Shown: positions 31,641 through 39,209 of the stretch, piece after piece
Layout of the letters: each line of letters opens with the position of its first letter
How positions within the stretch are numbered: position 1 is the stretch's first letter
Assembly (NCBI GenBank): GCA_963706595.1
Contig: OY970166.1
Location: 4,416,001 to 4,480,000, forward strand
Direction of reading: 5' to 3'
Source of the DNA: an uncultured cyanobacterium
Lineage (GTDB): Bacteria; Cyanobacteriota; Cyanobacteriia; Cyanobacteriales; Nostocaceae
Length of the DNA stretch: 64,000 nt
Translations under genes and position numbers: made by a program
The notes under the pieces: generated by a model
What the model saw: the letters and a program-made list of their open reading frames with translations, nothing else
Told to the model about the DNA's origin: nothing
Database searches by the model: none

Positions 31641-33299
31641 TTACTGCCATACAAACACTTTGGCTTCGTATGGTCCTAAGTCAGTAATCATGCCATCATC
31701 ATCAGCATCAACATGATAATTGCCTGTCCATTCATGCCATGTACCACCACAGGGAAAATTAGGAATGTGATAGCTACTCAGGAAGTTTTCTGAAAAATTT
31801 GCGACAACAACGACACGAGAACCTTCTTCATTCCAGCGACTGTAAGCTAGTACCTTGGCTTCTAGGTTTTCGTGAATAAAATCAATATTTTCTGTGTAGA
31901 GGGCGTGACTATTTTTACGCAGATGAATCAACCCCTTGTAGTATTCAAATAAGTGATGATTTAAATGATTCCCTAGCAGTGACCATTCGATTTTGGATGA
32001 TTCAGGTTGTTTGGGTCTGTATTCACCAAACTCTTCTCCCATCCAAATTAAAGGTACACCAACAGATGTCATCAGAATAGCTGCTGCCAATTTAGCTCTG
32101 TTAAACCCTTCTTCCTCAAAAATCTGCCGATTAGCCAGTTCAAGCATAGTCCGTTCATGGTCGTGGTTAGTCAGATAATTAACCACATTGGTTGTACCCA
32201 TAAAGCCTTGACGTTTACCATCAATCACATCTTTGAGGCTTTCTAAATCAAAAGTATCGCCACAAATATGCACCGTAATTGTATGACGGAAACTGTCGTG
32301 CCAACAACCATCCATTGGTCCATCTATATTGGTAATACTGGTAGTTTCTGGGATGTGTTCGGCAATGTTATAAAAACTCCTAGTACCAGCAGTAGCTTTG
32401 GCTTCTTGAACAATCCAATGCATGAAATCATAGTTAGCAATTTGTCTGGCTGCATCATAGCGAATACCATCTATATGATATTCTCTAATCCAAAAACGAA
32501 TTGTATCACCAATAAACTTTCGGGCTGGGTAAGTGTCTAAAATTTCGTCGTAATGTTCGTAATTAAACTCAGGACCCCAGTTATTTTCAACGTCACGCGG
32601 AGAATGGTGATACCAATAATCATGATCAATTTGAGTTAATGGACTTGAAGCTTCTGAGTGGTTATATATGCCATCCATAATTACCCGAATGCTTCTACTA
32701 TGACATTGATCAATTAGCTGCTTTAACTCAACGGTAGAACCATAACTAGATTCGGTGGCAAAGAAATAACAAGGATTATAACCCCAGCTATAACTTCCTG
32801 GATATTCTTTGATGGGCATCAACTCAATAGCGTTGATTCCTAATTCACACAAATAATCTAACTTTTCAATGACGTGTTTATATTTTCCTCTGGCGTGTCG
32901 GTCATCTTCACCACCAGAAAAATCACCAACGTGCAATTCATAAATTACTAATTCATGGTCAGCAGGTAGAGGTTTATCATCATGTTTCCAAACGTAAGTA
33001 TCAACAATTCTTTCTCCATCTTTGATGCGGACAATACCGTGATCTTCGCCACTGGCTCCATTAATGTCAGTTGCGTAAGGATCTATCACATCAACCCACT
33101 GTTCTGGTTCAAAAAACCATGAATTTGACTGAACCCTGAATTTATATTCATAGATGCCATCTTCTAGTTCAACATTCGTCCGAAAATAGCCATCTTCGCC
33201 CCTGTCCATGGAGATTTCTTGCCAATTAGAAAAGGAGCCAATTAATGCGACTCCTTTGTTGTAAGGCGCAAATAAATTAAATTCAACGGGTGCTGCCAT
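31641..33299 (-). CDS. GH13 alpha-amylase family protein with N-terminal CBM48-like domain
   Basis: IYELHVGDF, WGYNP, DGIRYDA, AEH, NHD. Confidence 0.88.
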   Translation of the reverse strand: MAAPVEFNLFAPYNKGVALIGSFSNWQEISMDRGEDGYFRTNVELEDGIYEYKFRVQSNSWFFEPEQWVDVIDPYATDINGASGEDHGIVRIKDGERIVDTYVWKHDDKPLPADHELVIYELHVGDFSGGEDDRHARGKYKHVIEKLDYLCELGINAIELMPIKEYPGSYSWGYNPCYFFATESSYGSTVELKQLIDQCHSRSIRVIMDGIYNHSEASSPLTQIDHDYWYHHSPRDVENNWGPEFNYEHYDEILDTYPARKFIGDTIRFWIREYHIDGIRYDAARQIANYDFMHWIVQEAKATAGTRSFYNIAEHIPETTSITNIDGPMDGCWHDSFRHTITVHICGDTFDLESLKDVIDGKRQGFMGTTNVVNYLTNHDHERTMLELANRQIFEEEGFNRAKLAAAILMTSVGVPLIWMGEEFGEYRPKQPESSKIEWSLLGNHLNHHLFEYYKGLIHLRKNSHALYTENIDFIHENLEAKVLAYSRWNEEGSRVVVVANFSENFLSSYHIPNFPCGGTWHEWTGNYHVDADDDGMITDLGPYEAKVFVWQ

Positions 33300-33476
33300 A
33301 AGATGATTTTGATTAAAAAATGTAGATGTGAATATCTTCTAAATTATTAATCAATTTGCAAACCAGTCTTTAGAGATATTTATGTAACTGCTTCATCTAT
33401 CTGAAGTTAGATTCTCTTGTATCAAAATGGGTTGTTGATTGAGTATTAATTGCTGAGATTACTCATGATTAAATTA

Positions 33477-33592
33477 TATAGCAATTCGATTTAATTCCTA
33501 AAATAAGTTGTATAGGCAGGGAACAGAGAACAGCAAAGCAGGAATCCAGGACTACCGAGTTTTTTCACAAAAAATTAAATAGGAGTCCTATA
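33477..33592. mobile_element. MITE-like dispersed repeat
   Basis: TATAGCAATT...TTAAATAGGAGTCCTATA; related to the 14660 and 27325 copies. Confidence 0.5.
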
Positions 33593-33664
33593 GTATAATG
33601 CTCACTATTATTAGGTATAAATATTTATTTGAAAATCATTCATTTTTTATTTTTTCTGCTCAAT

Positions 33665-34042
33665 TTAGTCAATTTTGCCGTTAGTTTCTTGTAAATAACT
33701 TAATAACCAATTTGCGGCTGTGGCTCTACGAGTCTGTCGCGGTCCAAATTCACCAATTTTGTAACCTTTGAAACCCAACTTTTCTTTCGCTATTTGTTTA
33801 TTTTCTTGAGGAATAGAACGAGTTAATTTGACTGTAGCTGGGCGACTATCAATAAAGTCAGGTGGTTCTGGGTACTCATCTCGCCATGCTGATGCAACTT
33901 CGCTATTATCCCATTTGTCAGTTGAAGTGTTATGGCGATAGCCTAAGTAGTGCCAGACTAATTGATTGACTGTGGCATCATCAATTTGCTCATTAAAAAT
34001 TGCCCAGATTGTTTCTGTATTCAGTGGTGGTAAATTAGACAT
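33665..34042 (-). CDS. DUF1823 family protein
   Basis: LVWHYLGYR, RPATVKLTRSIP, TRRATAANWLL. Confidence 0.8.
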   Translation of the reverse strand: MSNLPPLNTETIWAIFNEQIDDATVNQLVWHYLGYRHNTSTDKWDNSEVASAWRDEYPEPPDFIDSRPATVKLTRSIPQENKQIAKEKLGFKGYKIGEFGPRQTRRATAANWLLSYLQETNGKID

Positions 34043-34250
34043 AAGCGATGAAAATTTTACAATTCACGTGTGACTAAATTCGATTCTGTCCAGCAGTTAG
34101 GCTGACTTTGATCAACTCCTACAGATCAGGATGATTTTATCTCTTTCTACACCTACTGAAAAAGTTATCCGCAAAAACGACAAGTGTTTGAGTGAAAAAT
34201 TCGGTTGTGCGTCCACAAAACAGGTAAACTTGAAATCGTAAAGCATTGAC

Positions 34251-34559
34251 TTGTCTATGCAGAATCCTACATCACTGCCCAAGATAGTCCGCGCCCATGT
34301 ATTGATTTCCGGTCGAGTACAAGGGGTAGGCTATCGCTATGCGACTGTCGATACAGCTAGCCAGTTGGGTTTAACCGGTTGGGTGCGGAATCTCCCTGAT
34401 AACAGTGTGGAGGCAGTTTTTGAAGGGGCGCGGGTGGTTGTGGAAGAGATGGTTCGCTGGTGTCACACTGGCCCCCCGGCTGCGGTGGTGAAAGATGTTG
34501 TGCTTGAGTATCAAAAACCTGAAGGTTTGCGGGGGTTTGAAGTTAGGCGCTTTGAGTAG
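34251..34559 (+). CDS. acyP: Acylphosphatase
   Basis: GRVQGVGYR, GWVRN. Confidence 0.92.
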   Translation: MSMQNPTSLPKIVRAHVLISGRVQGVGYRYATVDTASQLGLTGWVRNLPDNSVEAVFEGARVVVEEMVRWCHTGPPAAVVKDVVLEYQKPEGLRGFEVRRFE

Positions 34560-34572
34560 CCCTTTTCTAAAC

Positions 34573-34668
34573 ATTATGGTAGTTGAGGCTTTGCGAAACC
34601 CAACAAATGCTGTGGATGTTACTGGGAAAATGTTGGGTTTCACTGCGTTCTACCCAACCTACCATAAT
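34573..34668. repeat. REP/REPIN-like inverted-repeat element
   Basis: ATTATGGTAGTTG...GAAACCCAACA ... TGTTGGGTTTC...CAACCTACCATAAT inverted arms. Confidence 0.65.
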
Positions 34669-34689
34669 TTTTCTACAACATTAAGTAGG

Positions 34690-34845
34690 TTGGTTGAGTC
34701 GGACAAGTCTTCGGTTTTGCAACCTACCAAGCTATTCGACTCAGTTTTATATTCGGAGGTCGTCGCCTTCCTCGCTGGTTCAGGTCTGGACTCCCGATTG
34801 TACGCCCGATAAATTCCCATTTATCAGCTCTGACCTTTGGGAGTA
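34690..34845 (-). ncRNA. Putative structured DGR spacer (3' flank of the TR RNA)
   Basis: Hairpins 34808-34825 (GATAAAT/ATTTATC) and 34695-34743 (TGAGTCG/CGACTCA arms) directly downstream of the TR. Confidence 0.5.
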
Positions 34846-34973
34846 CTCACGCCACAGCCACAGCCACCACGCGAAAACCAACATTGTTGTTACGATTCGC
34901 GCGCGCGTTATGATTGCGATTGGCAGAACGGCAATTCCTAGCGTTGTTGATCCAACTACCGCCACGCAGCAGC
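34846..34973 (-). repeat. DGR template repeat (TR)
   Basis: 128-bp ungapped copy of 35163-35290. Reads LLRGGSWINNARNCRSANRNHNARANRNNNVGFRVVAVAVA* with 10 AAY codons; 13 of 14 mismatches are at TR adenines. Confidence 0.95.
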
Positions 34974-35026
34974 TAAAATCGACCTGCCCCATCCTCAAAT
35001 TTTCAACTGAATGAGAAATTTGATTA

Positions 35027-35055
35027 AATGTAGTGTATAATAGATTTGATATCAA
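35027..35055 (-). promoter_or_regulatory. Candidate sigma70-type promoter for the TR RNA
   Basis: TTGATA-N17-TACATT on the minus strand, ~55 bp upstream of the TR. The region is AT-rich, so a chance match is possible. Confidence 0.3.
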
Positions 35056-35081
35056 GACACCAGATTTGATAAAAAATTTTT

Positions 35082-35095
35082 CCGCCTGACGGCGG
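35082..35095 (-). promoter_or_regulatory. GC hairpin downstream of VR (candidate DGR target-recognition hairpin)
   Basis: CCGCC-GTCA-GGCGG, following a pyrimidine-rich TTGCCCT repeat tract 3' of the VR. Confidence 0.5.
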
Positions 35096-35162
35096 GGGAA
35101 AGAAGGGAAAAGAATAAGAAGTGCAGAGGGCAAAAGGGCAAGAGTGTAAAGGGCAAGGAATC

Positions 35163-35290
35163 CTCACGCCACAGCCACAGCCACCACGCGAAAACCAACA
35201 GTGTTGTCACGAGTCGCGCGCGCGAGAGGATCGCGATTGGCAGAACGGCAAGCACTAGCGAGGAGGATCCAACTACCGCCACGCAGCAGC
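35163..35290 (-). repeat. DGR variable repeat (VR) at the 3' end of the target gene
   Basis: Encodes LLRGGSWILLASACRSANRDPLARATRDNTVGFRVVAVAVA*; 10 residues differ from the TR translation. Confidence 0.95.
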
Positions 35291-38235
35291 CGATAATCAT
35301 TATCATTCCCATTTAGCCAAGCACTTCCGTCTGTGGGCGCTGCCTCGTAATTTTCGTTATATATATCTTGGCACCATTCCCATATATTACCATGCATATC
35401 GTACAAACCGAAAGAGTTTGGCAAAAAATTTCCGACATCTGTTGTTTGTCTACGACTTTCACCTTTTGGGGCTGAGGCGTAGGGAAAGTTACCGTCGTAG
35501 TTAACTAAATCTGTGGTTATGGTTTCACCAAAAGAGAAGGGTGTGGTTGTTCCCGCACGACAAGCATATTCCCATTCAGCCTCGCTGGGTAGCCTGTATT
35601 TGCGTCCTGTACTTTGACTCAATTTTTCACAAAATTCTACAGCATCATCCCAAGTCACTTGTTCTACAGGTCGTTTATCACCTTTGAAATTAGCAGGATT
35701 TGTCCCCATAATTGCTTGATACTGCGCCTGGGTAACTGGATATTTCCCCATGAAGAAGGCAGGAACATTAACCAGATGCTGGGGACTTTCACTATCGAAT
35801 CTTTCTGCTTCCTCTGGTGGTGAACCCATCAAAAAAGAACCGCCAGAAATCGCCACCATTTGCAGAGTTACGCCATTACCTACATTTTCTACAAACTGGT
35901 CTGCTGTGCGGTTGTCTCTGGCAACAATATTTCCCTGTGCATTGACTGCTACGATTTTAAATTCAAAAAAAGTCTGTAAAAAAAGAGAATCATAATTAGG
36001 TATATTATAATTCCGACTAGGATTTTGGGTAATTTGATGTGTTACCACTGATGTCAGTAAACCCACACCTCCCCAACTAAGCCAAGTTAAAAATTTCCTG
36101 CGGCTGATTATCGGGGAAATAGAATTATTCGATTTAACAAAACTCGGCTGGTGAATTGATGGCTGAGTCACTATTCCCAACTTTCGTAATTTTTTCTGTC
36201 TTTGGAGTGAGCGACTAAAATCATCTGATACTTTCATGGTAAGTACAGATTGTTTTGTCATAAAGCCGAGAAAAAGATAATCCCGTAATAGACTATCTTG
36301 AGAAGCTGGTTTAGATAATAAAGAACGGATGGAATTAGCTAATTTGGTTAAAAAACTAGGAGCTTGTGTTGCTATTTCTAACTGTAATTTGCTGAACGCG
36401 GAACCTAACCCCCTAGCCCCCTTCCCTACCAGGGAAGGGGGAACATTCAAAGCCTCTCCCCTTGTAGGGTAGAGTTTTGGAGAGGGGTTTTCCTGATCCT
36501 GTGGAAAGTCAGAACCTTGAACAGCCGTATTTAATAAATCTTCTAGCGCATTACGAATAATCTGCTGTTGTTCTGGGGTGAGTGTTGTCATCAGGTAAAC
36601 ACGCAACCAGTCTGGCATATAACCAGAACGCAGCCACGGTAAACGAGCCAAATCAGTCAAGGAACACACTTCTAATAGAGATTTTCCTGACTCTGTGGTG
36701 AGAACGTTACCCAGATAAATAGTAATATTCCAATGCAATTCCGGAAAAACCGCACAAGCACTCAACCAATAAAAACTATCCTGTCCAAGATATTTCTCCA
36801 GCGACTCCAGCATGAGATTAATCTGCTCAGATGGGGGAGGATTCCGTTCTATCCAGAGATAAGGTTGTGTCCGTAATGAATCTGGTAGAGGTATTGGCGT
36901 TTTTTCCGCCAGAAAATAAGTTGCTACACCCTGGCGTAGTCTTTGACTTAGCACCTGTAAGCCTTTAAGTGTTGCGGGTAAAATAATAAACTGTTGTGCA
37001 AGTTCTAATTCCTGATATCTCCAGTTTTCTACAGGAGTGGGTGTTAGAAATGCCCGGTTTTCCCAGTCTGTCAATTGATTTACCCAAGGTTCTAATTCAC
37101 CACTAATAGAGCTAAAAAAGTTATCTGTATCGGAGATAATAATTAGACAATGCTGACTGTATTTTGATGTAATTTCTCTGAGTCTAAGTGGGAAGCTTCC
37201 TGGCTGATGGGGAAAACACATTCTTGGGTCATCATCGAAGAAATAGATAGTAGTAAATACGCCTTCATCTTGTAAGCGCTCAATTATTTCTTCTACAAAT
37301 TTAGCTTGATGATCTCGATAGCTGGTGCGGTTAACCAGAAATAGATACTCAGGGAGAATTTGATAAGTACGATAAACTGGAGTTAGCCATCCGCCTCGGC
37401 TGAGAGTTGCATTAATAGTTTTATTGACATCAAGTTCATGAGATGGAATCTGAATTCTATATCTTAAACTCTGGGCAATTTGGCGCAAGACAATATGAGA
37501 AACTAATTTATCTTCACAGCCAGCAATAGAAATTTTGTTTAATTCGGGTTGTTTTGTTGTACTATAACGTTGCAAAAACAGATTAGCACGCCATTGCGAT
37601 CTCAAAATGAGAAATGCAACTGAGATAGTTAGATAAAGTAGTAAAATTTGCCAATTTAAAGGTAAAGTTTCCGGAGGATCTGTTTTTGTAATTTCTCCTC
37701 TGGGAGGCACTTGTGGAAGTGGTCCCGTTGCTGGTGGGGGTAATACTGGGGTTGTTGTTTCTCCTGTTGGTCGTGGTTGTCTGAAAGACCTCTTCTCTAT
37801 GGGGGATGGGAATAAGATAATATATACAAAACATAGAAGAAAAATAGTAATTAAAGTTAGCAGTCTGAGTTGCTGCATCCCATAGGAGACAGAGGGTATT
37901 TTTTCTGGTTCGACTGGATGTGGTAGAGTTTCTAGGGTTGCTTTTTCTGTTAAGAAATTAGTTCGGCTAGATAACTGAACCCATCTGTCAAAACGTTGTG
38001 GAAATTCTTCCTGCTCAATGGGTGAACTACACAAAATTGGCCCTAACAAATTTCTCAGATTCTCTGGACTATCCAATGTTGTACCCCGATCAATCAACAT
38101 CAAGATTAAATTTTGGGCTGCAATATACTGAGATATGCCAATTTTGTAACCTGCTGCTCTTAGTTCATCGATGAACTCGATCAAATCATCAGGATTTAGC
38201 CAGTTTAGATTGTTTTTGTCTGTTCCTGTATCCAC
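35164..38235 (-). CDS. Membrane vWA-like / FGE-sulfatase (CLec-fold) protein; DGR target
   Basis: N-terminal helical region, two TMs, ELDV..TI.AT...PEYLFLVNR (vWA-like, degenerate MIDAS), third TM, then FGE domain (FLMGS, RLPSEAEWEYACRAGT, FGLYDMHGNIWEW, RGGSW, GFRV). Confidence 0.85.
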   Translation of the reverse strand: MDTGTDKNNLNWLNPDDLIEFIDELRAAGYKIGISQYIAAQNLILMLIDRGTTLDSPENLRNLLGPILCSSPIEQEEFPQRFDRWVQLSSRTNFLTEKATLETLPHPVEPEKIPSVSYGMQQLRLLTLITIFLLCFVYIILFPSPIEKRSFRQPRPTGETTTPVLPPPATGPLPQVPPRGEITKTDPPETLPLNWQILLLYLTISVAFLILRSQWRANLFLQRYSTTKQPELNKISIAGCEDKLVSHIVLRQIAQSLRYRIQIPSHELDVNKTINATLSRGGWLTPVYRTYQILPEYLFLVNRTSYRDHQAKFVEEIIERLQDEGVFTTIYFFDDDPRMCFPHQPGSFPLRLREITSKYSQHCLIIISDTDNFFSSISGELEPWVNQLTDWENRAFLTPTPVENWRYQELELAQQFIILPATLKGLQVLSQRLRQGVATYFLAEKTPIPLPDSLRTQPYLWIERNPPPSEQINLMLESLEKYLGQDSFYWLSACAVFPELHWNITIYLGNVLTTESGKSLLEVCSLTDLARLPWLRSGYMPDWLRVYLMTTLTPEQQQIIRNALEDLLNTAVQGSDFPQDQENPSPKLYPTRGEALNVPPSLVGKGARGLGSAFSKLQLEIATQAPSFLTKLANSIRSLLSKPASQDSLLRDYLFLGFMTKQSVLTMKVSDDFSRSLQRQKKLRKLGIVTQPSIHQPSFVKSNNSISPIISRRKFLTWLSWGGVGLLTSVVTHQITQNPSRNYNIPNYDSLFLQTFFEFKIVAVNAQGNIVARDNRTADQFVENVGNGVTLQMVAISGGSFLMGSPPEEAERFDSESPQHLVNVPAFFMGKYPVTQAQYQAIMGTNPANFKGDKRPVEQVTWDDAVEFCEKLSQSTGRKYRLPSEAEWEYACRAGTTTPFSFGETITTDLVNYDGNFPYASAPKGESRRQTTDVGNFLPNSFGLYDMHGNIWEWCQDIYNENYEAAPTDGSAWLNGNDNDYRLLRGGSWILLASACRSANRDPLARATRDNTVGFRVVAVAVA
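36397..36510. repeat. GC-rich palindromic dispersed repeat inserted in frame in the DGR target gene
   Basis: CCCCCTTCCCT-ACC-AGGGAAGGGGG hairpin plus CCTCTCCCCTTGTAGGGTAGAG; translates as NPSPKLYPTRGEALNVPPSLVGKGARGLG. Confidence 0.6.
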
Positions 38236-39209
38236 TGTTCTACAATTTTTTTAGCTTTTTCTTGATCATCAGCAGTTTTAATTAAGCTACTCAAAGTACC
38301 AAAAACTACTTCGGGTTGCAGTAAAGGATTTTCTGATGGACTATGAAACTTTCGTAAAATTATTAGCCAACCCAATAATTCAGCCGTTGCGGGTTTTTTC
38401 CTCAAACCACTTTGGGGGGAACGTAACCTGTAAAATAAGTTAAGGGCTGCTTGCAAAAATGGACTACTACTACCAGCATTAATATTGAAACGATTAGCGA
38501 CAATCTCAGCCAGTCGCTCAATTTTGGGAAAAGGAACGTTGTAATAAATGCAACGCCTGAGAAAAGCATCAGGTAAATCTTTTTCAGAATTGCTGGTAAT
38601 AATTATAATTGGTTGTAATTCTGGTTCGGCGGCAATTTTTTCATTTCCTAACTCTGGAATCCGAAAATACATTAACTCCAATTCGTTGAGTAAATCATTG
38701 GCGAAATCACGAGGTGCTTTATCAATTTCATCAATTAAAACTACTGAACGTGTTTTTTGAGAATGTCGAGTTTCTAATGACAATAAATCTTTAACTTCAT
38801 CTGGATTTTTAGTGTGTAAAATTGCTGTTCCTAAAGCTTGAAAAGTGATGTAATCTAAAAATTTAGTTGAATCAACCCCACTTTGCACATCTTGGAATCG
38901 CTTTAAGGCATCATAAGTATAGAATAAGTCACGAGCAACGCTAGTGGACTTAGTTTCAAACTTTAACGGCTGTTCCAGTCCAAGTTCCCAAGCCAGACTG
39001 TAAGCTAGTTGAGTTTTACCGGTTCCTGGTTCGCCGGTCACAAGTAGGGGTTGTCCTAATAACAGGGCTACATTACACGCATCTTTCAAGCCTGAATCTG
39101 CAATATAATTCTTTGGCTGGAGTAATTGAGAACGGGGAGAAGTTGGCACTTTTACTGGTAAATCCAATTGTTTGCGAGTTCCATCACCTGAGTAAAAGGG
39201 GTAATTCAT
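38205..39209 (-). CDS. MoxR-family AAA+ ATPase
   Basis: Walker A GEPGTGKT, Walker B VVLIDEIDKA, FANDLL, ITSNSEKDLPDAFLRRC. Confidence 0.92.
   Translation of the reverse strand: MNYPFYSGDGTRKQLDLPVKVPTSPRSQLLQPKNYIADSGLKDACNVALLLGQPLLVTGEPGTGKTQLAYSLAWELGLEQPLKFETKSTSVARDLFYTYDALKRFQDVQSGVDSTKFLDYITFQALGTAILHTKNPDEVKDLLSLETRHSQKTRSVVLIDEIDKAPRDFANDLLNELELMYFRIPELGNEKIAAEPELQPIIIITSNSEKDLPDAFLRRCIYYNVPFPKIERLAEIVANRFNINAGSSSPFLQAALNLFYRLRSPQSGLRKKPATAELLGWLIILRKFHSPSENPLLQPEVVFGTLSSLIKTADDQEKAKKIVEQWIQEQTKTI

Follow-up and report, generated by a model that had tools for sequence, protein, structure and literature searches.

The window is a 64,000 nt stretch from the genome of an uncultured Nostocaceae cyanobacterium, and it contains a 134 nt direct repeat with copies at 34840-34973 and 35157-35290. 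The right-hand copy forms the 3′ terminus of a target gene of CLec type, the position of a DGR's VR; the left-hand copy is the corresponding TR. The two differ at 14 positions, 13 of which are TR adenines. Across a 124 nt core, 13/25 template adenines are altered versus 1/99 other sites (Fisher p = 5e-10), and the distance from the start of the TR to the start of the VR is 317 nt. The features of the locus are as follows.

34251..34559, plus strand: acyP, the left border of a variable block by comparison with congeners
34573..34670, no strand assigned: dispersed REP-like repeat, outside the cassette, identified by its genomic copies
34686..34845, minus strand: 3′ spacer of the DGR RNA, with 34 of 37 consensus pairs kept
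34846..34973, minus strand: TR, non-coding, with ten Asn codons when read in the target's frame
34974..35020, minus strand: 5′ leader of the predicted template RNA, resembling the RT-stop/leader region of complete elements
35027..35055, minus strand: candidate sigma-70 promoter of the template RNA, TTGATA-N17-TACATT, in a region conserved across the cassette family
35082..35095, minus strand: GC-rich 5 bp hairpin followed by an A/T run, terminator-like, also present in related cassettes
35163..35290, minus strand: VR, comprising the last codons of the target and its stop, by comparison with the TR
35164..38235, minus strand: target gene, 1023 aa, with an FGE-sulfatase/CLec domain at residues 792-1018 (PF03781) and an N-terminal part without Pfam match
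38205..39209, minus strand: AAA ATPase directly upstream of the target (Pfam AAA/AAA_5)

By analogy with the Bordetella system, the hairpin at 35082..35095 is possibly the DNA hairpin used in target recognition, and the ATPase is probably MoxR-like by its family. On the minus strand between 38205 and 40809, the target is preceded by the ATPase, by a reading frame of about 330 codons that matches no family, and by a 148 aa ORF. Together with the cassette, these genes make up a block bounded by acyP and a hydrolase gene, and the block is missing from most congeners.

An earlier note, made from the sequence alone, described the locus as a DGR cassette without RT or avd, and most of its anatomy is borne out. 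The gap of ~190 nt between VR and TR holds no avd, and tblastn searches of the 64 kb window with Avd and with a full DGR RT return no match. The TR retains intact AAY codons. Beyond the spacer lies the REP-like element, a dispersed repeat whose two core motifs occur 51 and 71 times in the genome, followed by the convergent acyP gene. The assembly is a single 5.57 Mb contig free of N, and there is therefore no gap at ~34.67 kb, where a break had been considered. In contrast, the expectation of an RT between the TR and acyP does not hold. The nearest complete elements are ordered target-avd-RT-TR-spacer, so the missing genes belong between the VR and the TR.

The proposed promoter and the proposed structured 3′ flank each stand in part. 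The region of the TTGATA-N17-TACATT site aligns across the cassette family, and its 17 nt spacing is also kept in the genome's second RT-less cassette; taken alone, however, the site is weak, because three such sites are found versus 0.9 expected, and its start site is a prediction at the level of sequence. For the flank, an alignment of 40 spacers from complete and RT-less loci supports five helices, with compensatory changes at 24 of 37 pairs. None of 500 shuffles scores as high and all slid controls are lower, though the aligned rows were chosen by a sequence motif and are mutually related. The window's spacer breaks three of the 37 pairs, two of which are common to its subfamily and one of which is private. 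By comparison, folding the single sequence is no better than shuffles (z = -0.92), and was set aside as evidence of structure; an Rfam search of window positions 33000-37000 likewise gave no match at E <= 1. The leader (34981-34993) is predicted to pair with the spacer (34774-34786) at -17.1 kcal/mol, which 1 of 300 shuffles equals, and this prediction is weaker in some relatives. Moreover, in close Nostoc-type cassettes, conservation is higher in the TR and spacer than in the CLec coding DNA next to them. Together, the alignments indicate that the template RNA has been kept in working shape across the family. In RNA libraries of relatives, contigs span the promoter and TR and stop short of the spacer; they give no strand, level or start. 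The promoter-TR contig has a far higher depth figure than the others, but contig depth cannot rank genes. A search of sequencing runs found no reads of this strain: no run holds more than 14% of the window's words, a share too small to be a habitat signal.

A recent deletion of an RT at this locus, one of the two origins previously suggested, finds no support in the neighbourhood of acyP. Within about 1.5 kb of that gene, none of 10 congeners has an RT; nine lack the cassette altogether and the tenth (genome G008) carries a 65 nt TR remnant. Further, the RT-less promoter-leader junction is common to 12 of 151 genomes drawn evenly from the taxonomic family, representing 8 genera, and it also occurs in named Nostoc, Anabaena and Heteroscytonema loci. 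The sequence comparisons thus point to an RT-less arrangement that is old and conserved by descent, not a recent local accident. A scan for the spacer over all GTDB genomes yields at least 119 loci, of which 39 are too short to class (5 of these have the junction motif). The longer loci number at least 80: at least 30 have a full RT, at least 20 are RT-less cassettes (one doubtful, five with short flanks), at least 12 are collapsed VR-spacer fusions, at least 3 are TR-in-gene fusions, at least 8 have a partial RT or avd, and at least 7 are unclassified.

In a tree of 60 spacers, the cassette family groups with two target-avd-RT-TR elements (support 97/95), and the family's leader resembles the RT-stop region of complete elements. 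The family likely arose once, by loss of avd and RT from between the VR and TR of such an element. Descent of the satellite promoter from a former avd promoter was considered and dropped; no avd leader among the compared loci matches it, and the proposed origin accordingly draws on the spacer tree and the leader likeness. RT-less cassettes with other junctions and other spacer relatives are also present (L098, L103/L110/L129, L124, L136, L137 and L067), suggesting several independent origins. Complete elements in the order target-TR-spacer-avd-RT were seen as well (L073 in G012, L114, L122 and L147), with leaders that lack the satellite junction.

Members of the family occur on different target genes and at different sites. 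For example, the window's TR is 98% identical to the TRs of G002 and G004, which sit at another site. At L058:4009-5284, a copy of the promoter and TR, lacking the spacer, sits in a remote target locus; in the window's own genome (G000), that target locus has a VR alone. This offers a glimpse of cassette movement by DNA recombination. In other loci (L013, L014, L019, L060 and 12-15 among the matches listed), the cassette has collapsed, so that the CLec gene runs into the spacer or ends in the TR, as expected of recombination between VR and TR; among the matches listed, no DGR RT was found in 13 genomes with collapsed cassettes. At L218, AAY codons are gone from the 5′ half of the TR, which is there identical to the VR, a case of VR-to-TR conversion.

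These loci could be plain relics, diversified only while they had their own avd and RT, with the likeness of TR and VR persisting through slow decay and gene conversion. Most carriers have no detected RT, collapsed forms are common (at least 12 of at least 80 loci), and non-adenine mismatches are more numerous in satellites that lack an intact RT than in RT-adjacent pairs (median 2 versus 0, p = 0.0004, with the best VR chosen for the latter). A locus of similar description, all3226, is read as a remnant in the available text of PMC7517822. Against this, a relic origin requires many independent deletions that all produced one junction, and it has to account for the adenine-specific differences between closely related cassettes.

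Those differences are extensive. Among orthologous cassettes whose TRs are 0-3 nt apart, the VRs differ at 12-20 of 25 adenine sites and at 0-6 other sites; in G001 and G006, the counts are 17/25 and 2/93. The clearest case is genome G002, where a duplicated tract of 1,277 nt runs from CLec through VR and promoter to TR, its two copies showing 23 mismatches and 1 gap. The two duplicate VRs differ at 21 of 25 TR adenines and at 0 of 99 other sites. G002 has only two RTs, both intact and both in complete elements elsewhere with different TRs; its assembly is one contig, with a 60-N gap just upstream of one duplicate copy. Both VR forms also appear on separate contigs of run X8, which may be the same strain as G002, and run X6 contains yet another VR, in which 17 of the 19 listed differences fall at TR adenines, next to a promoter-TR contig that is identical. 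A duplicate rewritten at adenines, in a genome whose RTs lie elsewhere with other templates, points to rewriting in trans. Differences specific to adenines are beyond the reach of ordinary conversion, which would erase and not renew them. Slow decay cannot yield 21 adenine-site differences in a duplicated RT-less tract whose copies otherwise differ by 2 mismatches and 1 gap. For these reasons, we consider the plain relic quite improbable, and the comparisons argue that, across the family, VRs have been rewritten from their private TRs after the RT was lost.

In the window, the VR follows a private codon of its TR (CAT for AGG), agreeing with it at 4/4 sites diagnostic versus G002, and the neighbouring adenines are mutated. 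It is therefore likely that the window copy, too, was rewritten once it had diverged from the G002 type; less probably, a short conversion and a subsequent point change gave the same pattern. Gene conversion from VR to TR does occur (G195), and shared non-adenine sites alone are thus no proof of retrohoming. Across 21 cassettes of the family, the majority of VRs fit their own TR best; 14 have 0-4 non-adenine mismatches to it, and the divergent cassettes G000B (the second cassette of the window's genome), G020, G195 and G058 show 13-28 differences to the next best TR. Six of the 21 VRs fit another TR better, as signs of decay or TR replacement.

A search of the whole genome with a profile built from 40 spacers gives exactly two matches, both in RT-less cassettes. 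The second cassette (cassette B; L037, 3652091-3654621, at 3.65 Mb) has a caspase-CLec target and its own TR, with mismatches at 14/28 adenine sites and 4/93 other sites. The two spacers are 96% identical over 154 nt, and the TRs are 80% identical. The check for an RT elsewhere, which the earlier note had called for, is answered with a qualification: there is one DGR RT, 173 kb away, with an intact avd, but the RT gene is truncated. It is the only DGR-type gene among five RVT_1 matches (4,623,926-4,624,840), and it lies behind the genome's sole avd (4,624,841-4,625,197) and a TIR/SEFIR-CLec target, the whole locus (L036) covering 4623926-4626962. The open frame encodes 304 aa, versus 352-353 aa in relatives, and homology ends near residue 293. 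The RVT_1 domain and YVDD motif are retained. About 59 C-terminal residues are gone; they align with Bordetella bRT from about residue 275 on and would, by RT anatomy, make up most of the thumb. The DNA past the break matches sequence 3′ of the spacer at the same locus in G006, and therefore the end of the RT gene was lost in the same deletion as its TR and spacer. No RT-adjacent TR remains in the genome. The avd and the first 293 RT codons carry no other lesion. In G005 and G006, the same RT locus is also broken, at other positions. With two RT-less templates, a single Avd and a truncated RT, the genome thus has two private templates and no full-length DGR RT.

The genome's other RTs (two identical of 557 aa, one of 748 aa and one of ~1190 aa) show at most 27% identity to the DGR RT or no match to it. 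They were set aside as helpers because adenine mutagenesis is a property of DGR RTs, according to the available text of PMC7826257. Among further CLec genes, those with VR-like ends at 1871069, 645963, 4509276 and 4510417 form two VR families whose TR is gone from the genome, a remote VR of the window-TR type at 3,872,471 has decayed to 7 mismatches and 3 gaps versus the window's TR, and a further CLec gene near 820,300 appears broken.

The cassette could still be active. Its helper would then be either the truncated RT, working with the intact Avd, or an intact RT encoded on a replicon that the assembly lacks. The assembly is 94% complete and contains no plasmid, so that a plasmid with an intact RT could be missing; clade RTs are found on 6 plasmids of the PLSDB collection, and helpers can therefore move (the spacer pattern has 0 matches in viral contigs). 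The intact avd, the retained RVT_1 domain and YVDD motif, and the single non-adenine mismatch in 99, which adjoins mutated adenines, also favour present activity. Yet the lost C-terminal residues are conserved with bRT, cassette B has accumulated 4/93 non-adenine mismatches, the remote VR at 3,872,471 has drifted from the window's TR, the window's spacer carries a private broken pair, and two other VR families of the genome have lost their TRs. Activity at present is accordingly unlikely, and the cassette is likely dormant here because the genome's only DGR RT gene is truncated.

The distribution of RTs among carriers fits cassettes that outlive their helper for a while. Among the matches listed, 18 other genomes have RT-less cassettes; a DGR RT was not found in 15, was broken in 2 and was intact in 1, and many of these genomes are drafts that may be incomplete. 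In the evenly drawn sample, intact RTs are not enriched (4/12 carriers versus 37/139 other family genomes, p = 0.74), with intact helpers in G002, G013, G100 and G189. Any trace of an RT is more frequent in carriers (9/12 versus 45/139, p = 0.009; kin are not independent), as are broken-only RTs (5/12 versus 8/139, p = 0.001; kin are not independent, and contig ends may account for some of the breaks). Of the 18 rows with no detected RT, five have zero non-adenine mismatches, two of the five being the same cassette, and such pairs need a very recent loss, missing contigs or a recent transfer. In the mismatch comparison, L058, L110 and L220 were left out since they gave no pair there, and L214 duplicates L126. 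Two further expectations were examined and found wanting: pairs are not cleaner where the RT is intact (0, 1, 1 and 15 non-adenine mismatches; p = 0.34, n = 4), and non-adenine changes do not cluster significantly just 5′ of adenines (7/294 versus 14/1510, p = 0.065).

The same distribution bears on the idea that the pairs are frozen snapshots, in which rewriting in trans took place only in donor lineages with an intact RT and the cassette arrived here already diversified, by transfer or by CLec recombination, and never worked in this lineage. The spread of cassettes over different target genes and sites is consistent with it, as are the near identity of the window's TR to those of G002 and G004 at another site, the near-perfect pairs in genomes without detected RT, and the acyP block, absent in 9 of 10 congeners and reduced to a remnant in the tenth. 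However, a helper was present in this genome up to the deletion, which spared avd and the RT's first 293 codons any other lesion, carriers are enriched for broken-only RTs (with the caveat on kinship above), and the remnant at acyP in G008 suggests some residence there. An import that never worked in this lineage is therefore, like present activity, a reading to which we give little credence.

Overall, the cassette is best explained as a non-autonomous DGR with its own template. In the past, the RT-Avd of a complete element elsewhere in the genome likely rewrote it in trans, and at present it is likely dormant, a reading to which we assign a probability of roughly 0.66. The question of whether it is a satellite or a relic then has two answers. 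The junction shared across genera, the conserved RNA and the adenine rewriting in G002 indicate a satellite by design, but this genome has no working helper, its RT being C-terminally truncated, and the copy is probably a relic at present. Both of the alternatives posed earlier are thus half right. As a mechanism, the private promoter would produce an RNA of ~330 nt comprising leader, TR and spacer, and the leader-spacer duplex and stem-loops would be bound by a non-cognate RT-Avd of the clade, made elsewhere. The RNA would prime in cis from its spacer, as in Bordetella, and adenine-mutagenised cDNA would replace the VR, varying the ligand-binding tip of a CLec sensor. The CLec protein is likely the sensor in an ATPase-linked conflict system, a function proposed in the available part of PMC10907252. 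The family would spread between CLec genes by DNA recombination, and each cassette would be served episodically, whenever a complete element is in the cell, with helpers coming and going. Afterwards, the cassette would decay or collapse by recombination between VR and TR.

A broader proposal, offered tentatively and with somewhat less than even confidence, is that Nostocales harbour a widespread family of satellite DGRs comparable to SINEs. These would be template-RNA genes with their own promoter that attach to CLec sensor genes through recombination and can be read by whichever RT-Avd of the clade is present, whatever its template; they would lie dormant in genomes without RT and be reactivated when a mobile complete DGR arrives. 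If so, immune sensors would be hypermutated in episodes set off by horizontal transfer, and surveys anchored on the RT would miss a large share of template genes. Indeed, the DGR surveys PMC7517822, PMC3521204 and PMC4891356, as far as their available text describes, start from the RT gene, so that private-template cassettes without enzymes drop out or get called remnants. Should a single RT-Avd be able to read several unrelated templates by way of a shared spacer fold, specificity would reside in the match of TR and VR, not in RT-RNA pairing. This would explain how several sensor families are diversified with few cyanobacterial enzymes, and it would provide natural minimal template-RNA genes for targeted-mutagenesis tools. 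The value lies mainly in the cassette family and in the G002 duplicate as a test case, and less in the window copy, whose helper is broken.

In relation to known systems, the cassette works like a DGR, yet it is not a complete one, having neither RT nor avd, and it is not a remote VR-only target, as it has its own TR and spacer. A literature search found no treatment of RT-less cassettes with private templates as a family (supplements and most subscription papers were outside its scope), and the available text of PMC3610870 describes two RT-bearing elements with no mention of an RT-less template. The closest description is that of all3226 in Nostoc sp. PCC 7120 by Vallota-Eastman et al. (2020, PMC7517822), where the homology of TR and VR next to a CLec gene that has no RT nearby is called a 'remnant' in one sentence. 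The likeness to the window cassette is by description, and the account, in its available part, differs from the present one in that it analyses no family, RNA structure or trans activity.

Action at a distance has precedents. In Thiohalocapsa PB-PSB1, the degenerate DGR loci 4 and 5 lack a local RT, and their VRs, diversified in nature, are read as evidence of trans activity in the available text of PMC10907252. Those VRs match the TR of the complete locus, so that template and enzyme are both borrowed; unlike PB-PSB1, the window's template is private, and only the RT-Avd would be borrowed. Trichodesmium erythraeum, as portrayed in the accessible portion of PMC4143802, has 12 remote targets of one TR, whose RNA has its own start site and is still expressed although the RT is pseudogenised in the sequenced strain. 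These remote targets share the action at a distance, but, unlike the window cassette, they have no template gene of their own.

The DGR RNP of Bordetella phage BPP-1 (bioRxiv 10.1101/2023.10.23.563531; PDB 8UB7), as presented in the text available, shares with the window's prediction a leader-spacer duplex and a stem-loop just after the TR. Both are described there as conserved in cyanobacterial DGRs, and the window's predicted duplex resembles the cPRT Stop duplex of that account. All parts of BPP-1 lie in one locus, unlike those of the window, and the window's spacer helices are mapped to its named elements by analogy only. Further, the ATPase, the ORFs and the cassette between acyP and the hydrolase gene resemble the ternary conflict systems outlined in the available part of PMC10907252.

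The nearest relatives are the cyanobacterial CLec/FGE-sulfatase DGRs with avd-RT-TR order (architecture B2, Wu et al. 2018, PMC5758913; clade 5E, Dore et al. 2024, PMC10907252). As far as the available text of these sources extends, they share with the window cassette the target domain, the adenine signature, the spacer sequence and structure, and an ATPase upstream. In PMC5758913, avd, TR and brt are reported, in the portion available, to be supplied together from a plasmid. By comparison with these DGRs, the window cassette has no avd or RT, has its own candidate promoter directly after the target, and carries a TR to which no RT-adjacent TR corresponds, either in this genome or in G002.
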